From an uncultured Nitrospiraceae bacterium (GTDB lineage: Bacteria > Nitrospirota > Nitrospiria > Nitrospirales > Nitrospiraceae): 64,000 bases of DNA. Location of the stretch: the NCBI GenBank assembly GCA_963846575.1, contig CAWJWJ010000002.1:1344001-1408000 (forward strand). The letters are read 5' to 3'. The translations under genes and the position numbers were made by a program. The notes below the pieces were generated by a model. The model saw nothing but the letters and a program-made list of their open reading frames with translations, made no database searches and was not told where the DNA came from. Positions 1-7,546 of this stretch are shown one piece after another (positions within the stretch are counted from its first letter, which is position 1; each line of letters begins with the position of its first letter).

Positions 1-107
1 GGATCTTGTGTGTGTCAAGTTTATCGATCAGATATCACAAGGAGGTGAGCCATGATGAATAGCTCGTAAGTGAGTGGAAACTTGTACGTCCCACCGCTCC
101 TTATTTC

Positions 108-147
108 TGTCCCCCAGTGTCCCCTCCTGTCCCCTCGTGTCCCCTCA
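108..147 (+). repeat. Four direct repeats of TGTCCCC with exact 10-bp period
   Basis: tgtcccccag/tgtcccctcc/tgtcccctcg/tgtcccctca at 108, 118, 128, 138. Confidence 0.85.
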
Positions 148-227
148 CAGGGATCTTTCACCAACACGGCCCGCATGCGTATGGTCAGCGCCGTGCAACG
201 CGACGTCATCGTGAGAGAGGAGATGCC

Positions 228-540
228 ATGAGAAGGTTCTGGATCAACCGCCGATCAATTGGCCGCCAAACTGGGCGTGAGTGTGAAGTCCATCCGCCGG
301 GCCTACCGCAAAGGCGAGATTCCCGTCGATCGATTCTGCCGGTTTGTCCGCTTCGATCTGGAACGGGTGAAGGAAGCACTGCAGGCGAATGGGCATTGGC
401 CGTCCTTTGTCGATGCCAAGAGGAAGAAGGGACAGCGCAGCGCGACCGGCGGCGCCAGCCGGCGGCGCGCGCAGCGGACCAGCCCCCGACTTGGTAAGAC
501 GGGGGCGTCTATCGCTACCAAGCCAAGGAGGAAGAAATGA
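228..540 (+). CDS. Excisionase/MerR-like winged HTH DNA-binding protein (apparent +1 frameshift at ~246)
   Basis: RBS GAGGAG, ATG at 228; removing one A at 246 gives MRRFWITADQLAAKLGVSVKSIRRAYRKGEIP...VRFD, a typical HTH_17 pattern. Confidence 0.7.
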
Positions 541-1530
541 CAGGTTCAGGAGGGTTCACTCAGACCATCGATTGGCTGGCCTTCACGCTTCCAAAGGCGG
601 AGGTCGCCGACGTGATTACGATGATTGGTGGCGACTGGTTCCAGAGTGAGACCGGCTTTCGCGGGTATCCCGTGGCCCAACTCATGACGGAAGGTAAGAA
701 CGGGGTCGGCAAACTGGGGACGGGTGCCCCTCGCAATCCAAAGGAAGTGCATGTGGATCTCTCCGCCGGGATTGTCTCCCAGTGGGACGAGACCAAGCTG
801 AAAGCGGTCCTCGCCTGGATCTTCGCGCAGAAAGGCCATGTGACTCGGATCGATGTGGCGCTGGACGACCGGGAGGCCTCTGTCGCCGTGGAGACCGTCC
901 GCCTGGCCGTGGAGGCCGGACAGGTGGTGAGCCGTTCGAAACAATTCAAAGTCATCCAAGCCTCGAATCATCGCGAGGGCGTCCGTACGGGCGAGACGCT
1001 CTACTTTGGCAGTCGCGAAAGTCAAACCATGCTGCGGGTCTACGACAAGCGGCTGGAACTCCAGAGCCAAAGGCCGAGAAGACGCCGGATTGTATGGCGT
1101 CCGATGGGAACTGGAATTCAAACAGGATCGCGCTCAAGCCTGCGCGAAGGCCCTCCTCACGCTCGATCCCGAAGATTGGCGGGCCTTCTTGGTGGGCGTG
1201 CTGCGTTCCTATGTGGATTTCCGAGAGACCACACGAGAGGCGGAATCCTATGAGAAGTATCGAGCGCCGTTGGTGAGTTGGTGGAAAGCCCTCACGGAGG
1301 GCTTCATGCGATGCCGACTGGTCGTCGAACGCATTCAGCAGCGACTGGATGATGTGGCCGCCTGGCTCGCGCAATCCGTCGCCTCGATGCTCGCTGTGGT
1401 CGTGGCGTGCCGAGGCGATCAGTTCCTGAAGGAGCTCATCTATGCCGGCACGCAGAAATGGAAGCAGAAGCACTATGCCCTGCTGAAGGAACGGAGGAGA
1501 GGGACGCCCTATGTCCTTAGAGTTTCATAA
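537..1530 (+). CDS. Rolling-circle replication initiation factor (Rep_trans family), split by a +1 frameshift at ~1068
   Basis: Motifs IDWLAFT, TRIDVALDD, GETLYFGSRES, LRVYDK in ORF 537..1253 continue as KGREDAGLYGVRWELEFK in the other frame. Confidence 0.85.
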
Positions 1531-1697
1531 CGGAGCGTGGCAACGGATGTGTCCGGGCTGTGGCACGCGAGGCTGTCGGTGCAAGTGGAGAACAGGGCGC
1601 CCTGTATCTGAGCTGTCGGGCATGCGATTCGGAATTCTGTTATGCGACCAATAGCCCGGTCCGAAGGCCGGGGCGTGTGGGTCAGGCGCTTGGCTGA
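1511..1697 (+). CDS. Small Zn-ribbon-like phage protein (apparent +1 frameshift at ~1568)
   Basis: MSLEFHNGAWQRMCPGCGT then, one base shifted, EAVGASGEQGALYLSCRACDSEFCY...; paired CxxC motifs and a purine-rich RBS. Confidence 0.5.
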
Positions 1698-1732
1698 CCC
1701 GGATTGTGTTCATCACTGGAGGAGGGACGACG

Positions 1733-1996
1733 ATGCAAGTCAAAGCGGAGGGAGCGGTACAGGGGTATGTGGAACGGAGGAGCCGGGAAGGCAAGGTCTA
1801 CCGATCGGTGGATTTTTATGTGAAGGGCAAAGATCCGGGGGTGCTGCGTTTGGGGATTCCGGACGATCAGATGCCGTTGATCGAGGTCTGCAAGCAAGCC
1901 GAGGGCAAGCAAGCGCAAGTCTCGATCGAAGTGCGGAAGTTCGAACAGACCGGACGGGTCTTCTTCGACCTGTACGGATTGGAAGTCTTGAAGTAA
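1733..1996 (+). CDS. Putative ssDNA-binding protein (pV-like)
   Basis: 87 aa, beta-rich and basic, strong RBS GGAGGAGG, positioned after rep as in inoviruses. Confidence 0.65.
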   Translation: MQVKAEGAVQGYVERRSREGKVYRSVDFYVKGKDPGVLRLGIPDDQMPLIEVCKQAEGKQAQVSIEVRKFEQTGRVFFDLYGLEVLK

Positions 1997-2016
1997 CGGC
2001 AGAGGGAGGAAGGCCG

Positions 2017-2091
2017 GTGGATCTCACCATTATTCTCGTGGCGGTCTTGTTACTGGCCTTCCTCCTGGGCCTCGGAGTCGGACGGATATGA
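2017..2091 (+). CDS. 24-aa hydrophobic minor virion protein (pVII/pIX-like)
   Basis: RBS GGAGGA, GTG start, MDLTIILVAVLLLAFLLGLGVGRI, stop overlaps the next ATG (ATGA). Confidence 0.6.
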   Translation: MDLTIILVAVLLLAFLLGLGVGRI

Positions 2092-3357
2092 AGCTGATCT
2101 CGTTGACAGGGTATCTCGGGCTCATCTGGAGCCTTGCTCGTGTCCCTGTGCGTCTGCGCCGGGTGAATCCGTGGCGCAGACCCGACCCAGTATGCGCGGG
2201 TGGTCGCTCAAGCCGAACGCATTGCCTATCTGGCCGCGCAACGGTCCGCCTTGGCGGGTCAGGTGGCCTCGGCTGCAGTGGCTCCCTCGGCCGCCTCGTT
2301 GGCCGTCCGCATGGTCGCCGGTCCGGTGGGTTGGGCCGCACTCGGTGTGGGCGCGGGATTGGTCCTGGCTCAGATGTACTATTCACAATCCGACCTGTCG
2401 GCCATCAAATCGGCGGCCTCGACGCCGGGTGGCTGGCAAGTCACCAGCAGCAATGCCGGCATCCAGACCTTTCCGGGCCTGGGGACCAATACGCCCGGCA
2501 ATCCCAGTTATCCCAACGCGAGCATTCAATTCAGCACGACCAATGTCCCGCTCTGTGCGGTCGATTCAGAGTATCAGCATGATTGGATGGTCGGACCCTT
2601 TCAGAGCGTCAGCACGGCCGTGTACTTCTCCGGCAATTTCTTCGTCAACGGCCCGCCGGTGGGAGGACACAGCCTGTATGTCTGCCACCGAAAAGGCATC
2701 CCGGGTGAGCCCGCTCCGTTGCAAGACGCCTCCACTCCGCCGACGCAGCAGCAGGCGGCCAACTATGTGGCGGCACTGCCGGCGAGTGATCCGAAGTCCA
2801 TCGAAGCCCATACGAATCCGGTCGGGACCACCGGCACGACCCAACCGGCGGACAATACGGTCTCGCAGCCCGTCTCGCCGAGTGAGATGCCGACCACGGT
2901 CAAACCGAAGCCGGTGCCTGCCGGAGACATCATCGTGGTGGACAACGTCCCGCCACCGGCCAGTACGCCGCAGCAAAACACCCAGCAGCAGACGACGACC
3001 ACGACGACCACGACGACCCAGAATCCAGACGGCTCGACGACGCAACAGGAAGAGACGCAGGCCACCACGTCCTGTACGGCCGGCACGCATGAGAACCGGA
3101 CCTTCGGAACGGTGCTGCAAGCGCATCAGACGATCTGGGCCACGAGCGGACTGCTCAGTACGCTGAATCTGCTGAAGTCCCTGACCTGGCCCTCGACCTT
3201 GCCGGTGATTGCGCTGCCCTCGGCCTTCTTCGGCAGCCAGCAGGTGGACTTCAATCAATGGGCCTGGTTCTTCACCGTGCTCCGGACATTGGTCATTGCG
3301 GCGGCTTCCATTGCGGCGTACCGCATCATCTTTGTGGGAGGTCAGACGAGCACATGA
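2088..3357 (+). CDS. pIII-like adsorption protein; N-terminal signal region disrupted by indels at 2130-2190
   Basis: Signal-like start MKLISLTGYLGLIWS, main frame 2200..3357 with Cys pair, Pro/Thr-rich linker (QQQTTTTTTTTTQNPDGS) and C-terminal TM anchor ending AAYRIIFVG. Confidence 0.75.
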
Positions 3358-3629
3358 CCGCCATTCTGACCCTGATCTATTGCTGGCTGCAGGAGTTCTT
3401 CTTCTCGCTCACGGATTGGGGACTCGGCATCTGGGATTCCCTGCTCTCCGTGGCGGACAGCACGCTCGCGACCCTCGGCACGGCAGGCCTCACCCTGCCG
3501 GTCATTCCCGATCAGTACGCGTGGGTGCTGGGCGCGACGGGCATGAGTCAGGCGCTGGCCATCGTGGCGAGCGCCATGGGGACACGATTCATTCTCCAAA
3601 CCATTCCATTCGTGCGGTGGGGCTCATGA
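3354..3629 (+). CDS. pVI-like minor coat protein (DUF2523-like)
   Basis: 91 aa hydrophobic protein ending IPFVRWGS, between pIII and zot, ATGA coupling. Confidence 0.7.
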   Translation: MTAILTLIYCWLQEFFFSLTDWGLGIWDSLLSVADSTLATLGTAGLTLPVIPDQYAWVLGATGMSQALAIVASAMGTRFILQTIPFVRWGS

Positions 3630-3712
3630 ACCAGCTCGTCATGGGCTGGGCCTATGCCTGGACCGTCGTCTTAGCGCTGTGGATCTGGGTCTATGTCAGG
3701 AGTCTCCGATGA
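3626..3712 (+). CDS. 28-aa single-TM phage protein
   Basis: MNQLVMGWAYAWTVVLALWIWVYVRSLR, ATGA overlaps on both sides. Confidence 0.55.
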   Translation: MNQLVMGWAYAWTVVLALWIWVYVRSLR

Positions 3713-4715
3713 TCGAACTGTATGAAGGCGTGCCGGGCTCGGGCAAGTCCTATCACGCGATCTGTGAGAAGTTCCTGCCCTGGGTGCGGCAAGGCCGGCG
3801 ACTCTATATCGCGGTCGATGGGATCTATCTGGATCGGCTGGCGCTGTTCACCGGCATCGAACTCGACACGCTCGAACAACAGATCACGATCTGGAAAGAC
3901 TCCGTCGAAGTCCTGCAGGCTTTTCCGCACGTCGAACCGGGTTCAGCCGTCATCATCGACGAAGCCCAGACCGTCTTTCGGTCCATGCAGAAGGTCGAAC
4001 CGGGACTCCTGCGCTGGCTCGAAACCCATCGGCATTACGGCGTGGATATTCTGCTCATGAGTCAGGATTTTCGCCAGATGTCGCAAGGTGTCACCCGGCT
4101 GATCGAAGCCACGGTGAAGTTTCGCAAGCTGGCCTTTGTCGGGCTCGCGAAGAAGTACCAGGGCAAGGTGCGGGGGAATCCCGAAGACCACGAGACCATC
4201 CGGGCCTTCGTCGGGACCTACTCGCCGGCGATCTACGCCTACTATTCGAGTTATGCGTCGGCGGCGATCCGAGAAGAGAAGCGCAGCCATACGGTCTTCA
4301 AGTCGGCGCGGGTCGCGATCGGCATTGCCGCTGGGCTGTTTGCCATTGGCCTCATGGTCTGGCGGCCCTGGTCGTCATTAAGCAGCACCAAGGGAATGCC
4401 GGCAACGAGCGTGAGTAGCGCTGCGACTTTGTCTTCGCTCCATCTGCATCGGCGCCGGGCAGTCTCGTGAATCCCTTGGGCGCTTCCGCTCCCTCAGTGG
4501 CCACACCGTCACCTCCCAAACGACCAGTGCGCATTCTGGGCGGCGCCGGCATGTCGTCGAATCGGCAAGGCTGGCGCTATCTCTTGGACAGCGGCGAGAT
4601 CCTCACGGCGGCTCAGATCACCGGCCGGTATGGCGTCGTCGTGTCGGAAGTCTATGAGGAGGGATCGATGCGGCTCATCGGCGAAGGAGTGTTCTATGGA
4701 CCAGCCGGCGATTGA
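3709..4715 (+). CDS. Zot-like/pI morphogenesis ATPase; apparent -1 frameshift at ~4440 separates the C-terminal domain
   Basis: Walker A GVPGSGKS, Walker B IIDEAQ, HRHYGVDILLMSQ motif, TM segment; adding one C at ctc-cca joins ORF 4467..4715. Confidence 0.9.
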
Positions 4716-4908
4716 GATGATGACCTACTTCACGGCGATCTTCTGGCTCGGCGGGTTTGCCGTCGGTCTGATTATCAAACTGATTCTGCCTCAGAGCTCA
4801 CTGAGGCACTCGTCCGCCGGCGAGGATTCCGGCGGCGTGGGTGGACGTGACCACCAACAGCACAAGGAGGTGCGGTATGAAGGGATGGGGTTGGGTGAAG
4901 GGGCTTAG
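4696..4908 (+). CDS. Small TM phage protein (3' end uncertain)
   Basis: RBS AAGGAG, MDQPAIEMMTYFTAIFWLGGFAVGLIIKLILP; the tail overlaps the coat gene start, so the true stop may be earlier. Confidence 0.5.
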   Translation: MDQPAIEMMTYFTAIFWLGGFAVGLIIKLILPQSSLRHSSAGEDSGGVGGRDHQQHKEVRYEGMGLGEGA

Positions 4909-5089
4909 GGGCTTGCTCATGGCGTTCGTGTTCGCCCTGGGCGTCCCGGCGCTGTCGCAGGCGCAGTTGTTTCCGGTGTCGGCGGATGTGGCCACGGTGC
5001 GGGCCGATCTGCTCTTGTGGGCCACGGCCCTGATTGGCGTGGCGTTGGCGATCTACGCCTTTAAGCGCGTGCGCGCGATTGTGGGCTAG
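4877..5089 (+). CDS. Major coat protein (pVIII-like) with signal peptide
   Basis: RBS AAGGAGGT; 70 aa, signal ending SQA, amphipathic segment, TM helix, basic C-terminus FKRVRAIVG; followed by a terminator. Confidence 0.8.
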   Translation: MKGWGWVKGLRGLLMAFVFALGVPALSQAQLFPVSADVATVRADLLLWATALIGVALAIYAFKRVRAIVG

Positions 5090-5102
5090 GTAAGAGCCCA
5101 TC

Positions 5103-5134
5103 GAGGCAGGCTGGCAGCAGCCTGCCTCCTTTTT
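5103..5134 (+). terminator. Rho-independent terminator after the major coat gene
   Basis: GAGGCAGGCTG-gcag-CAGCCTGCCTC 11-bp stem followed by cTTTTT. Confidence 0.85.
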
Positions 5135-5178
5135 CAGCACAGGACAGATCAGGATGGGACCGACAAAGGAGTGCACGG

Positions 5179-5307
5179 ATGACGGCGCAACAGATTCAAA
5201 ATATCGGCAACGCGTTGGCCACCGACCTGGTCGCCTGGGGCACGGCGGCGATCGGCCTCGCATTGGTAGCCGCCGGAGCGGCCTGGGTGTTGCGGCTGCT
5301 GCGCTAG
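5179..5307 (+). CDS. 42-aa leaderless paralog of the major coat protein
   Basis: RBS AAAGGAG; MTAQQIQNIGNALATDLVAWGTAAIGLALVAAGAAWVLRLLR; TDLVAWGTAAIGLAL aligns with ADLLLWATALIGVAL of the coat protein. Confidence 0.7.
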   Translation: MTAQQIQNIGNALATDLVAWGTAAIGLALVAAGAAWVLRLLR

Positions 5308-5807
5308 GCGCCGGGCCAGCCCTGGTCGGCGAAGCTGTAGTAGCGGTCGTCAGCGAGGATGAGATGGTCCAGCAGCGGAATGCCGAACAGATCAGCCGCT
5401 TCGCGCAGCCGTTTGGTCAGGACGCCATCTTCCGGGCTAGGGGTGGTATCGCCGGAGGGATGATTGTGCGCGCAAATCCAGGCGCCGGCATTCATGAGGA
5501 TCAGGGGTTTGAAGACTTCACGGGGATGGACAATGGCCAAGGTGAGCGACCCGGTCGAGACGACATTGATGCCGATGACCCCATGCTTCGCATCGAGGCC
5601 GCAGACCAGGAACTGTTCCCGGTCCAGACCGGCAAACAAGGGCCGGAGGATCGCAGCGGCGCCTTCCGACGTATGCACCGACTCCGCAGCCGGAATGGCA
5701 CGGCCCTCGCGCACGAGCGTGACACGGTACCGAGGGACTCCGTATTTCCGAATCGGGCTCAGTGGCCGTACACCGTTCGAGGAACCGAGAGAGCTATCAA
5801 CGGACAT
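5304..5807 (-). CDS. RadC-like JAB domain protein
   Basis: REQFLVCGLD, VHPREVFK, AHNHPSGDTTPSPED, LLDHLIL; RBS AAGGAGG before ATG at 5807. Confidence 0.9.
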   Translation of the reverse strand: MSVDSSLGSSNGVRPLSPIRKYGVPRYRVTLVREGRAIPAAESVHTSEGAAAILRPLFAGLDREQFLVCGLDAKHGVIGINVVSTGSLTLAIVHPREVFKPLILMNAGAWICAHNHPSGDTTPSPEDGVLTKRLREAADLFGIPLLDHLILADDRYYSFADQGWPGA

Positions 5808-5834
5808 GTGCGCCTCCTTCTTCATTTCTATGTA

Positions 5835-5864
5835 GCCCCACCCTTCACAAACCGAGGGTGGGGC
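5835..5864. other. 10-bp stem hairpin in the radC-xis intergenic region
   Basis: GCCCCACCCT-tcacaaaccg-AGGGTGGGGC. Confidence 0.6.
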
Positions 5865-6068
5865 GTAGAAGAAGAGGCGGCACGGGGCTCTCGCAGCGGG
5901 CAGGCCTGGAGGGGCGGAGACCGGCACGGAGGGGACCGGGAAGGCCTAGCCTGCTGCTCCCTGGCACCGGGCCGCACCCGCATGGAGGTGGATGCATCGA
6001 GGAAATTCGGCGGCAACAAGGGGCTACTTGTCTGTTCATATTTGTGCTGAAAAGGGTGTGAGAAAACC

Positions 6069-6287
6069 ATGAGCAAGCTTTTGACAATGGATGAGGCATC
6101 GGAGTATCTAGGCATATCAAAATTGACTCTCTATGGCTGGGTGTCTGCCCGGAAGCTTGGTTTCGTGAAAGTCGGACGCCTCGTTAGATTCAAACAGGAA
6201 CACCTCGACAAGTGGATCGATCAACACACGGTCAAGGCGCGAGTAGAGACGCAGAAGTTTTTTGACTGTGGGTCACAGCAAAGATAG
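6069..6287 (+). CDS. Excisionase family HTH protein
   Basis: LLTMDEASEYLGISKLTLYGWV...KVGRLVRF, directly upstream of the integrase. Confidence 0.85.
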   Translation: MSKLLTMDEASEYLGISKLTLYGWVSARKLGFVKVGRLVRFKQEHLDKWIDQHTVKARVETQKFFDCGSQQR

Positions 6288-6332
6288 GGGTGGCCTAGCT
6301 CAGGGCAGATTAATACGAGCAGGAGTAGAAAA

Positions 6333-7442
6333 GTGGGACTGACCAAGCGACGTAACAGCTACTATGTAGAGTTTCGGGTGCTTACTTCAGAGGATGGGAA
6401 GTCGTACAGGCTTGCCTCTGAGGTACACGGCGCGAGGCTTAAACGATGGAAGGTGGGTTGCCTTAACAAGCAGGTAGCGCGAGAGATGGAAGCTGCCATC
6501 AGGATGAATCTCCTCTTGGGCAAGGTTCTGACAGCAGAAGCTCGGCCTGTTCTGTTTTCTGAGTGGGCTACTACTTATCTGAACCTGGAGGAAGTGAAGG
6601 CTCTGCGGTCGTATCGAGATCGATCAGACAGAGTAAGCAAGCAGTTAGTTCCGTATTTCGGTGGCGTGATCCTGGGTGAGATCAGACCACAGGATGTGGA
6701 GTCCTTCAGAAGCCAGAGAGTCAGGAAGGATGGAAGGGCAGCCAGTCTACAGACCATCAACCACGACCATGTGGCGTTGAAGCATTGCCTAAACGTGGCC
6801 ATTCGGCGGGGGCTCTTGAATAGCAATCCCGCGAGCAAGGTTCCAATACCCAATCCGCAGAACGAACGCGACAGGGTGCTAGGGGTCGAGGAGTGGGATA
6901 GGCTATATCAAACGGCGAAGCCACATCTTCAGCCAGTCATGCTCTTGGCATATCAGCTTGGGCAACGGTTCAGGGAGATCATCGAATTGACTTGGGACCG
7001 GATTGACTTAAGGCGAGGATTCATCCTTCTGAGGTCTATTGACACAAAAACCAAGCAGCGTAGGGAAGTCCCTATGACTCCAGCGGTCAGGACTATGCTT
7101 CAAAAGCTGGCGAAGGTGCGGAGACTTGAAACGAATCGGGTCTTTCTGTACAAGGGCAAGCCGCTGGGTCGGGTGTCTAGAGCGTTCAAGAGCGCTCTCA
7201 AGGAAGCAGGTCTATCAGACTTCAAGTTCCATGACCTTCGACACTGCGCCTCCACCAACCTTAGAAGGGCAGGGGTGGACACAGCAACCGCCATGCGGAT
7301 AGTTGGTCATAAATCTGAGAAGATGTGGAAACGGTATAACGCTATTGAGGAACGGGACTTGACGCAAGCAGCGGAAAAGCTCGATAAGTTCCTGGCAACT
7401 AACACCCTAATAACACCTGGGCAAAGCTCTCTTGGGTCATAG
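6333..7442 (+). CDS. Tyrosine recombinase/integrase
   Basis: GQRFREI (catalytic R), TKTK, FHDLRH, VGHKSEKMWKRY (H, Y). Confidence 0.92.
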   Translation: MGLTKRRNSYYVEFRVLTSEDGKSYRLASEVHGARLKRWKVGCLNKQVAREMEAAIRMNLLLGKVLTAEARPVLFSEWATTYLNLEEVKALRSYRDRSDRVSKQLVPYFGGVILGEIRPQDVESFRSQRVRKDGRAASLQTINHDHVALKHCLNVAIRRGLLNSNPASKVPIPNPQNERDRVLGVEEWDRLYQTAKPHLQPVMLLAYQLGQRFREIIELTWDRIDLRRGFILLRSIDTKTKQRREVPMTPAVRTMLQKLAKVRRLETNRVFLYKGKPLGRVSRAFKSALKEAGLSDFKFHDLRHCASTNLRRAGVDTATAMRIVGHKSEKMWKRYNAIEERDLTQAAEKLDKFLATNTLITPGQSSLGS

Positions 7443-7447
7443 AGTAT

Positions 7448-7460
7448 TAACTAATTGATA
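7448..7460 (-). promoter_or_regulatory. IHF consensus site in the att region
   Basis: Reverse strand TATCAATTAGTTA matches WATCAANNNNTTR exactly. Confidence 0.6.
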
Positions 7461-7469
7461 AATCAGGTT

Positions 7470-7546
<77 letters not shown>

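Follow-up and report, generated by a model that had tools for sequence, protein, structure and literature searches.

In the available sections of three published accounts, inoviruses are described with a single major coat protein (PMC11209303, PMC10675462, PMC13595969), and the standard virion is given as one major and four minor coats (PMC11209303). The Ff phages (M13, f1 and fd) carry pVII and pIX, which are small, have a single helix and no leader, and cap the particle at its round tip (PMC10480500). Pf3 has a leaderless major coat of 44 aa (1IFP), which is its sole annotated major coat. Pf1 has a leadered major coat that is followed by a rho-independent terminator and then by a low-copy virion gene, the large pIII-type ORF437. 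The Nitrospira prophage analyzed here has elements of both systems. As in Pf1, a leadered coat gene (A) is followed by a hairpin and a further gene (B), but the gene beyond the hairpin is a coat homologue and not a pIII-type protein, and the coat block lies after pI, unlike in Pf1. B is most like the Pf3 coat, which it matches in length, the lack of a leader, the single helix, the aligned aspartates and the basic end; in Pf3, however, such a protein is the only annotated major coat, whereas here it comes second, downstream of a leadered one. Our literature searches, which took in few subscription papers, returned no published description of two inovirus coat genes or of this Nitrospira phage family, and no inovirus study in Nitrospira, a key nitrifier. 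PMC6813254 lists one Nitrospirae inovirus species, and seven of its supplementary files, which may not include the Supplementary Notes, contain no mention of paralogous, duplicated or multiple major coats.

The prophage, an inovirus-type element of the Nitrospira type, occupies positions 1 to 7546 of the window, by which we mean the whole 64,000-nucleotide stretch of DNA analyzed. Its genes run in the order HTH, Rep_trans, ssDNA-binding gene, small membrane ORFs, pIII-/pVI-like genes, pI, A, B, RadC, excisionase, integrase and tRNA-Arg (Table 1). Small single-helix structural genes together with a rolling-circle Rep are a hallmark by which inoviruses are recognized (PMC6813254, available parts). 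We found several such genes of 30 to 90 aa with one membrane helix, a rolling-circle Rep and a Zot-family, FtsK-like pI ATPase, a gene content that points to a Tubulavirales prophage, with predicted filamentous ssDNA virions. The pIII-like and pVI-like genes are putative assignments, as neither had a family match in our searches. The source genome contains four copies of the prophage, all of which (4/4) hold both coat ORFs; up to five copies of the phage family are co-resident in another genome (G395), and close relatives of the prophage come nearly all from Nitrospira or Nitrospiraceae records. The copy in the window has frameshifts in rep, pI and tm3, and its pI is 253 aa long compared to 334 to 335 aa in five of five relatives checked; breaks are also present in the other prophage copies of the source genome. 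The frameshifts reflect either long-read error or decay, and because of them the window copy may be inactive or mis-assembled.

Table 1. Positions of the prophage features in the window, with the evidence on which each was called.
Feature	Position	Strand	Basis
Small membrane ORF tm1, pVII-like	2017..2091	+	Top PDB match 8B3P G7P, E 0.11
pIII-like and pVI-like genes	2200..3629	+	Position, size, C-terminal membrane helix
pI/Zot-family assembly ATPase	3709..4715	+	PF05707, E 5.6e-30; frameshifted in window copy
Small membrane ORF tm3, pIX candidate by position alone	4696..4803	+	Directly upstream of A
Shine-Dalgarno of coat A, AAGGAGGTG	4864..4872	+	Sequence; duplex with host 16S tail, -14.9 kcal/mol
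Predicted signal peptide of coat A, 29 aa, ends ...SQA	4877..4963	+	Inspection of sequence
Mature coat A, 41 aa, likely major coat (pVIII/CoaB type)	4964..5089	+	Homologue family matches
GC-rich hairpin with short U-tract: leaky terminator or mRNA-stabilizing stem	5103..5134	+	Fold
Shine-Dalgarno of gene B, AAGGAG	5166..5171	+	-8.4 kcal/mol
Gene B, 42-aa leaderless coat-like single helix, Pf3-coat-like	5179..5307	+	dN/dS, HHalign, PDB match, AlphaFold
RadC/JAB gene, convergent with B	5304..5807	-	PF04002, E 6e-39; same place in most relatives
Excisionase, tyrosine integrase, tRNA-Arg (attachment site)	6069..7546	+	Family searches

Outside the structural genes, the prophages vary in their modules. 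The RadC/JAB gene is a stable passenger of most of them and converges on B, and the integrase module beyond it is highly variable, with 22 to 78% identity among loci. The 5′ 43 nt of the tRNA-Arg (window 7469-7511) are repeated at C2:1319430-1319472 of the source genome (G000), ∼24.5 kb upstream of the window start; this second copy adjoins a broken integrase, which suggests stacked elements at the site. Three related prophages (L024, L274 and L276) carry unrelated replication genes in one slot, so that the replication module is exchanged while the structural block of A and B, seen in L274 and L276, stays. At C2:130-132 kb, C2:524-527 kb and C1:849-852 kb, the source genome also holds rep-xis-integrase elements with no structural gene matches, which are possibly satellites or relics.

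Gene A (4877-5089) encodes 70 aa including the leader. Its homologues match the Pf1-type family PF05356 (Phage_Coat_B) with a best E of 1.2e-4, below the cut-off, and they match PHROG 7106 (major head; 7 of 10 members) and PHROG 6548 (major coat; 5 of 10), with a best E of 3.8e-5; one NCBI homologue carries the name major capsid protein. The leader is variable among relatives, and the A29-Q30-x-F-P-V junction is kept. The Shine-Dalgarno of A forms the strongest duplex with the 16S tail among five phage genes tested, and dN/dS of A is 0.004 in the close clade. From position and Shine-Dalgarno strength, we infer that A rather than B would be the shaft coat present in thousands of copies. In the close clade, dS of the mature part of A (window 4964-5086) is 0.19, compared to 0.66 for B, which hints at codon- or RNA-level constraint or at homogenization between co-resident copies.

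Gene B had been proposed, in a sequence-only reading of this DNA, as a 42-aa coat-like ORF with a strong ribosome-binding site and no signal peptide. The coordinates, the upstream AAGGAG and the leaderless form were all confirmed, and conservation and dN/dS, which were among the checks put forward in that reading, indicate that the gene is real. The 142 loci that carry both genes include 111 with a distinct combination of spacer and B, and 110 of these have a closed, intact B ORF, mostly of 42 aa (88 loci) or 47 aa (18 loci); the B of one locus (L228) lacks start and Shine-Dalgarno. A Shine-Dalgarno-like word of at least 5 nt precedes B in 98 of the 111 despite divergence of the spacer, which averages 63% nucleotide identity compared to 86% for B. 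Pairwise dN/dS of B, computed from sequences that share kinship and hence from non-independent pairs, was 0.089 for 82 close and 0.117 for 17 distant sequences, whereas the other two forward frames over the gene gave 1.7 and 4.6, and variable columns number 37 at codon position 3 compared to 14 at position 2. B is a protein-coding gene under purifying selection. NCBI and JGI annotate its homologues as hypothetical proteins.

The product of B keeps the anatomy of a coat protein, namely a continuous helix of the 40- to 50-aa class with an amphipathic N-terminal part, a D-x3-WG motif, a membrane segment and a basic C-terminus. AlphaFold predicts one helix from residue 3 to 41 (pLDDT 96), and the window B has a hydropathy of 2.0 and two basic residues, R39 and R42. 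The sequence-only reading had noted basic C-termini on both proteins; this is true, but they are unequal, as the final 12 residues include 2 K/R in B (130 of 130 sequences) and 3 to 4 in A. In one locus on the minus strand (L277, G309:C201), B is 67 aa long with a signal-peptide-like N-terminus, the sole leadered B seen.

We compared A and B by BLAST and by profile methods. BLAST of the window pair was marginal (E 0.028). With HHalign, however, the two family profiles matched at 91.9% (E 7e-7), and wider alignments of B and mature A matched at 97.3% (E 2.8e-11, 31 columns), whereas pVII, pIX, M13 pVIII, tm1, tm3 and the Pf1 proteins all stayed below 3%; the profile similarity between the two proteins that the sequence-only reading anticipated is thus present. 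Likewise, the B profile scores A genes at 18.7 to 37.5 bits, compared to 6.0 for the best of 172 small host membrane ORFs, its matches beyond intact B in 401 Nitrospirota genomes are A genes and two B relics, and the A and B profiles find each other as reciprocal genome-wide matches. Similarity to the Pf3 coat reached 85% for B and 76% for mature A, and the Pf3 coat is the best known match of B. It was also the sole PDB match of the wide B profile (1IFP, E 0.17), and a B of the LAS72 type aligns with it over 38 residues, both aspartates included. With a threshold of E 0.5, PF05356 was matched by 4 of 20 B members, and one of them (P0023, 23.7 bits) passed the cut-off of 23.5; the window's own B had no PF05356 match. 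Single-sequence searches of A and B in Pfam, PHROG and PDB, and PDB searches with the narrow A and B profiles and the wider A profile, gave nothing significant. B had no match among GenBank phages, nor did its helix in a Foldseek search of the PDB, for which a single helix is an uninformative query. Judged by these profile comparisons, B is homologous to A and to the Pf3 coat; both A and B are similar to members of the Pf3/Pf1-type coat family, the links to named families being weak but consistent.

The relationship between A and B appears to be an old one. In a tree of 49 rows and 45 columns, in which the bootstrap is unsettled, A and B fall on opposite sides of a branch with support 95/89, the A of the outgroup phage L062 groups with the other A rows, and the B side takes in the coats of Pf3 and Pf1; B as a single clade is neither rejected nor established (p-AU 0.32). 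The pairwise identities of A rise with those of B (r 0.85 over 210 non-independent pairs). Since the A/B branch predates the split from the distant outgroup phage, the two lineages would have separated long ago. The proposal of two paralogous coat-like genes therefore holds as to homology but finds no support as to a recent duplication, and B may have arisen either by duplication or by early acquisition of a Pf3-like gene.

B accompanies A almost without exception. In 23 of the 401 Nitrospirota genomes, we found 47 strong A matches, and all 47 have B 64 to 147 nt downstream; the 48th B, which has no paired A, sits at a contig end. All strong matches to A or B lie within the host's family, in which 24 of 75 genomes carry B (one of the 24 by a relic only), often in several prophage copies; no B was found in other families of the 401 genomes. 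Three weak A matches (E 0.001 to 0.009) occur outside the host family, at least two of them inside long open frames. Of 236 partly redundant loci, 142 have both genes and nine have A alone, eight of which end no further than 83 nt past A; one locus has B alone and lies at a contig end. Setting aside contig ends and two relics, every prophage with B that we saw also carries A. The families are large, with 481 proteins matching B and 396 matching A at E 0.01 or better; the two sets may partly overlap, and the most distant B members carry uninformative names. B is almost never lost from the Nitrospira phage clade. The exception is L062, whose pI is 37% identical: a strong terminator follows its A, B is absent there, and the B profile assigns 15.2 and 11.6 bits to two leaderless ORFs that lie upstream of A, compared to the host best of 6.0. 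Relics of B were seen as a degenerate lone fragment with no start and no phage context (G000 C2:463349-463468) and in L229 (G305), where the structural genes are deleted and rep runs straight into the end of B and radC.

We further analyzed the region between the two genes. The sequence-only reading placed a strong terminator here, which overstates the signal. In the window, an 11-bp stem (5103-5128) is followed by CTTTTT (5 T); the RNA fold has a z of -2.6, and 4 of 200 shuffles were equally stable. A stem-loop follows A in 23 of 23 diverse loci examined, with several unrelated sequences among them. Folds were also computed for the 111 unique spacers; in 106 close loci, the 9 nt after the stem contain 3 to 7 T, whereas the LAS72-type clade lacks a U-tract. 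Rfam returned no family for the spacer other than one chance match (E 0.45). A scan for sigma-70-like sites, which is weak for this host, found none near B, and the gap from stem to start codon is about 11 to 27 nt in most of the 23 loci, too short to hold a promoter; where it is only 11 to 22 nt, a separate promoter for B is unlikely, and a promoter overlapping the hairpin is possible. The leaky hairpin and the scant space for a promoter make read-through the probable source of B, at a lower level than A. The sequence-only reading had offered read-through or a separate promoter as the source of low-level B, and the former fits so short a gap better. In the LAS72-type clade, where the U-tract is missing, lower expression of B is not assured.

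We also compared B with the known cap proteins. The small leaderless single-helix proteins pVII and pIX of the Ff phages resemble B in build, but similarity between them is under 1%: HHalign gave 0.8% for B against M13 pVII and 0.7% against M13 pIX, and B lies downstream of the major coat. The corresponding values were 0.3% for Pf3 ORF58 and 2.7% for Pf1 ORF83. The pVII slot appears to be filled not by B but by tm1, which matches M13 pVII at 92.9% in HHalign and has a relative that matches Pfam Inovirus_G7P_2 (E 5e-4). For tm3, whose frame in the window copy stays open until 4908, we found no PDB match and no similarity to M13 pIX. In M13 itself, no similarity of pVII or pIX to pVIII was detected (z 0.3). 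Pf3 ORF58 (L279) and Pf1 ORF83 (L280), when compared with their own coats, gave z of 4.8 and 4.5, with 0 and 2 of 1000 shuffles reaching these scores.

Second coat genes are not confined to the Nitrospira phages. Our control set comprised 58 distant inovirus loci (pI at most 37% identical) in 19 clusters. In this set, which is non-random, includes many partial contigs and has major coats assigned by eye, a second ORF resembling the presumed major coat occurs in at least 6 of the 19 clusters (z 6 to 32; 0 of 1000 shuffles and 0 to 1 of 172 host ORFs as high), and a seventh cluster (L118) was seen in profile comparison only. The IMG/VR loci with such an ORF are L105, L109, L110, L074, L083, L084, L086, L090, L092, L094 and L112. 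None of these second coats detectably belongs to the B family (at most 6.6 bits on the B profile). In L105 and L109, the order matches that of the Nitrospira phage, a leadered coat and then a leaderless coat-like ORF, so that the tandem of both forms, which the sequence-only reading regarded as unusual, is present here but not unique. In L105, L109 and L110, however, the genes are 0 to 3 nt apart with no hairpin between them, and most other second coats are upstream copies with long charged tails, unlike B.

Several of these loci are of interest in their own right. L105 (711-1013), L109 (1395-1751) and L110 (3241-3471) are AT-rich inoviruses with the leaderless coat-like ORF directly after the coat; the second ORFs of L105 and L109 are alike while the first differ, and the first coat has a leader in L109 and none in L110. 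In L074, L083, L084, L086, L092, L094 and L112, which are unrelated inoviruses, a copy of the phage's own presumed major coat has a long charged or acidic cytoplasmic tail. Such a copy usually immediately precedes the coat, but in L092 it lies between pVI and pI. Copies of this kind recur in different lineages and may represent a gene class that has yet to be described. Two loci on the minus strand (L270, G309:C208; L271, G309:C167) have a third, leaderless coat copy between the pVI-like gene and pI, which is derived from A, nests among the A rows of the tree and has a long acidic tail in place of the basic one; such a tail would not allow the A-type contact with DNA, and the copy looks like a decoy or assembly regulator. 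The Nitrospira A/B pair looks like a well-conserved case of an apparently recurrent inovirus habit, and no one-off.

We propose, with a probability of about 0.5, that B is a low-copy, extra minor subunit of the virion made by read-through of the hairpin. Most transcripts would stop or be stabilized at the hairpin, so that A would outnumber B. B would insert N-terminus-out without a leader, like the Pf3 coat, which inserts through YidC, and the leadered B of L277 is consistent with N-out export. The pI ATPase would then co-extrude B along with A, and B would be placed as a short segment or adaptor layer beside the cap or scattered along the shaft. Its two basic C-terminal residues, compared to three or four in A, would shift the DNA contact locally, as basic C-terminal coat residues face the DNA in M13 (PMC10480500, available sections). 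A mosaic or minor capsid subunit was among the roles raised in the sequence-only reading, and conservation, coat homology and the leaderless form make it plausible. Constant retention, purifying selection and the place at the end of the operon are together best fitted by a low-copy virion subunit; retention is like that of an essential gene, and the stronger Shine-Dalgarno and tighter constraint are on A. Strict retention of B also fits an assembly helper outside the virion.

As tm3 matches neither M13 pIX nor any PDB entry, B may simply be the phage's pIX, an ordinary round-tip minor coat at an unusual address with nothing extra present. B lacks a leader, would be low-copy judging by its position and is constantly retained, and Pf-type minor coats are often coat-like: the weak resemblance of Pf3 ORF58 and Pf1 ORF83, encoded upstream of the coats, to their own major coats is what keeps this reading in play. 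Nevertheless, we consider it unlikely, as tm3 is conserved out to the distant L062 and L063 phages and holds the pIX position directly before A, B is unlike M13 pIX, Pf3 ORF58 and Pf1 ORF83 but matches the Pf3 major coat at 85%, and L062 has tm1 and tm3 plus two further coat-like ORFs. B could instead act at the inner membrane as a coat decoy, for superinfection exclusion (e.g., through type IV pilus parts) or for tuning of pI. The available text of PMC11436027 reports that pVII, pVIII and pIII of Pf4 join in exclusion through PilC/PilJ, which provides a precedent among capsid proteins. A coat homologue with fewer DNA-facing charges could be dominant negative, although the charged-tail copies of other inoviruses look still more decoy-like. 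Such a role is hard to square with several co-resident copies of the family per host (four here, up to five in G395), and exclusion genes are usually patchy in distribution, whereas B is constant. Moreover, B is the last structural gene of its operon, with no promoter-like site close by and frequently too little space to hold one, a placement that suits virion synthesis rather than a quiet lysogen, and we give the decoy little credence.

That B might be an alternative major coat, building its own filament under high read-through or limited leader processing, is suggested by the Pf3 coat, a true major coat that likewise has only two basic residues near its C-terminus, and by the stable hairpin without a U-tract in one clade, which could pass much transcription. 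The weaker Shine-Dalgarno of B, its higher dN/dS in the close clade, its downstream position and the lack of prophages with B and no A (contig ends and the two relics aside) make this improbable. Degenerate relics of B do exist, at C2:463349-463468 and in L229, as would be expected of a non-functional remnant, and a neighboring gene such as radC might in principle conserve B from outside. However, dN/dS is ∼0.1, variation is predominantly at third positions, 110 of 111 ORFs are intact, and B and radC overlap in their stop codons and no further, so that the codon-level selection data refute this reading in practice and leave it almost no weight. The subunit read as a low-copy part of the particle can be extended, tentatively and with the balance against it, to a two-coat filament in which B, a major-coat descendant dosed by read-through, would be the sixth protein of the virion and would be placed as a segment or mosaic in the shaft, with such homologues common but overlooked among inoviruses. 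An analogy, and only that, is the CPm of closteroviruses, which arose from the coat as a diverged duplicate and forms a short tail covering about 5% of the genome (PMC7827187, available parts). Like the A/B phage, these are filamentous viruses with a diverged second coat gene, but they are unrelated plant RNA viruses with another fold, and a segmented virion is hypothetical for the phage with B.

Mosaic pVIII display is an engineered system, and B as a scattered or segmental virion subunit would be its natural counterpart. Because copies of coat genes seem to be widespread, the question can be tested in hosts that are easier to handle than Nitrospira. A second coat homologue maintained throughout a clade points to a virion part or an assembly step that is absent from the standard model. 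Pf-type shafts are non-five-fold (PMC10480500, available sections), and B could bear on how such shafts meet their caps.
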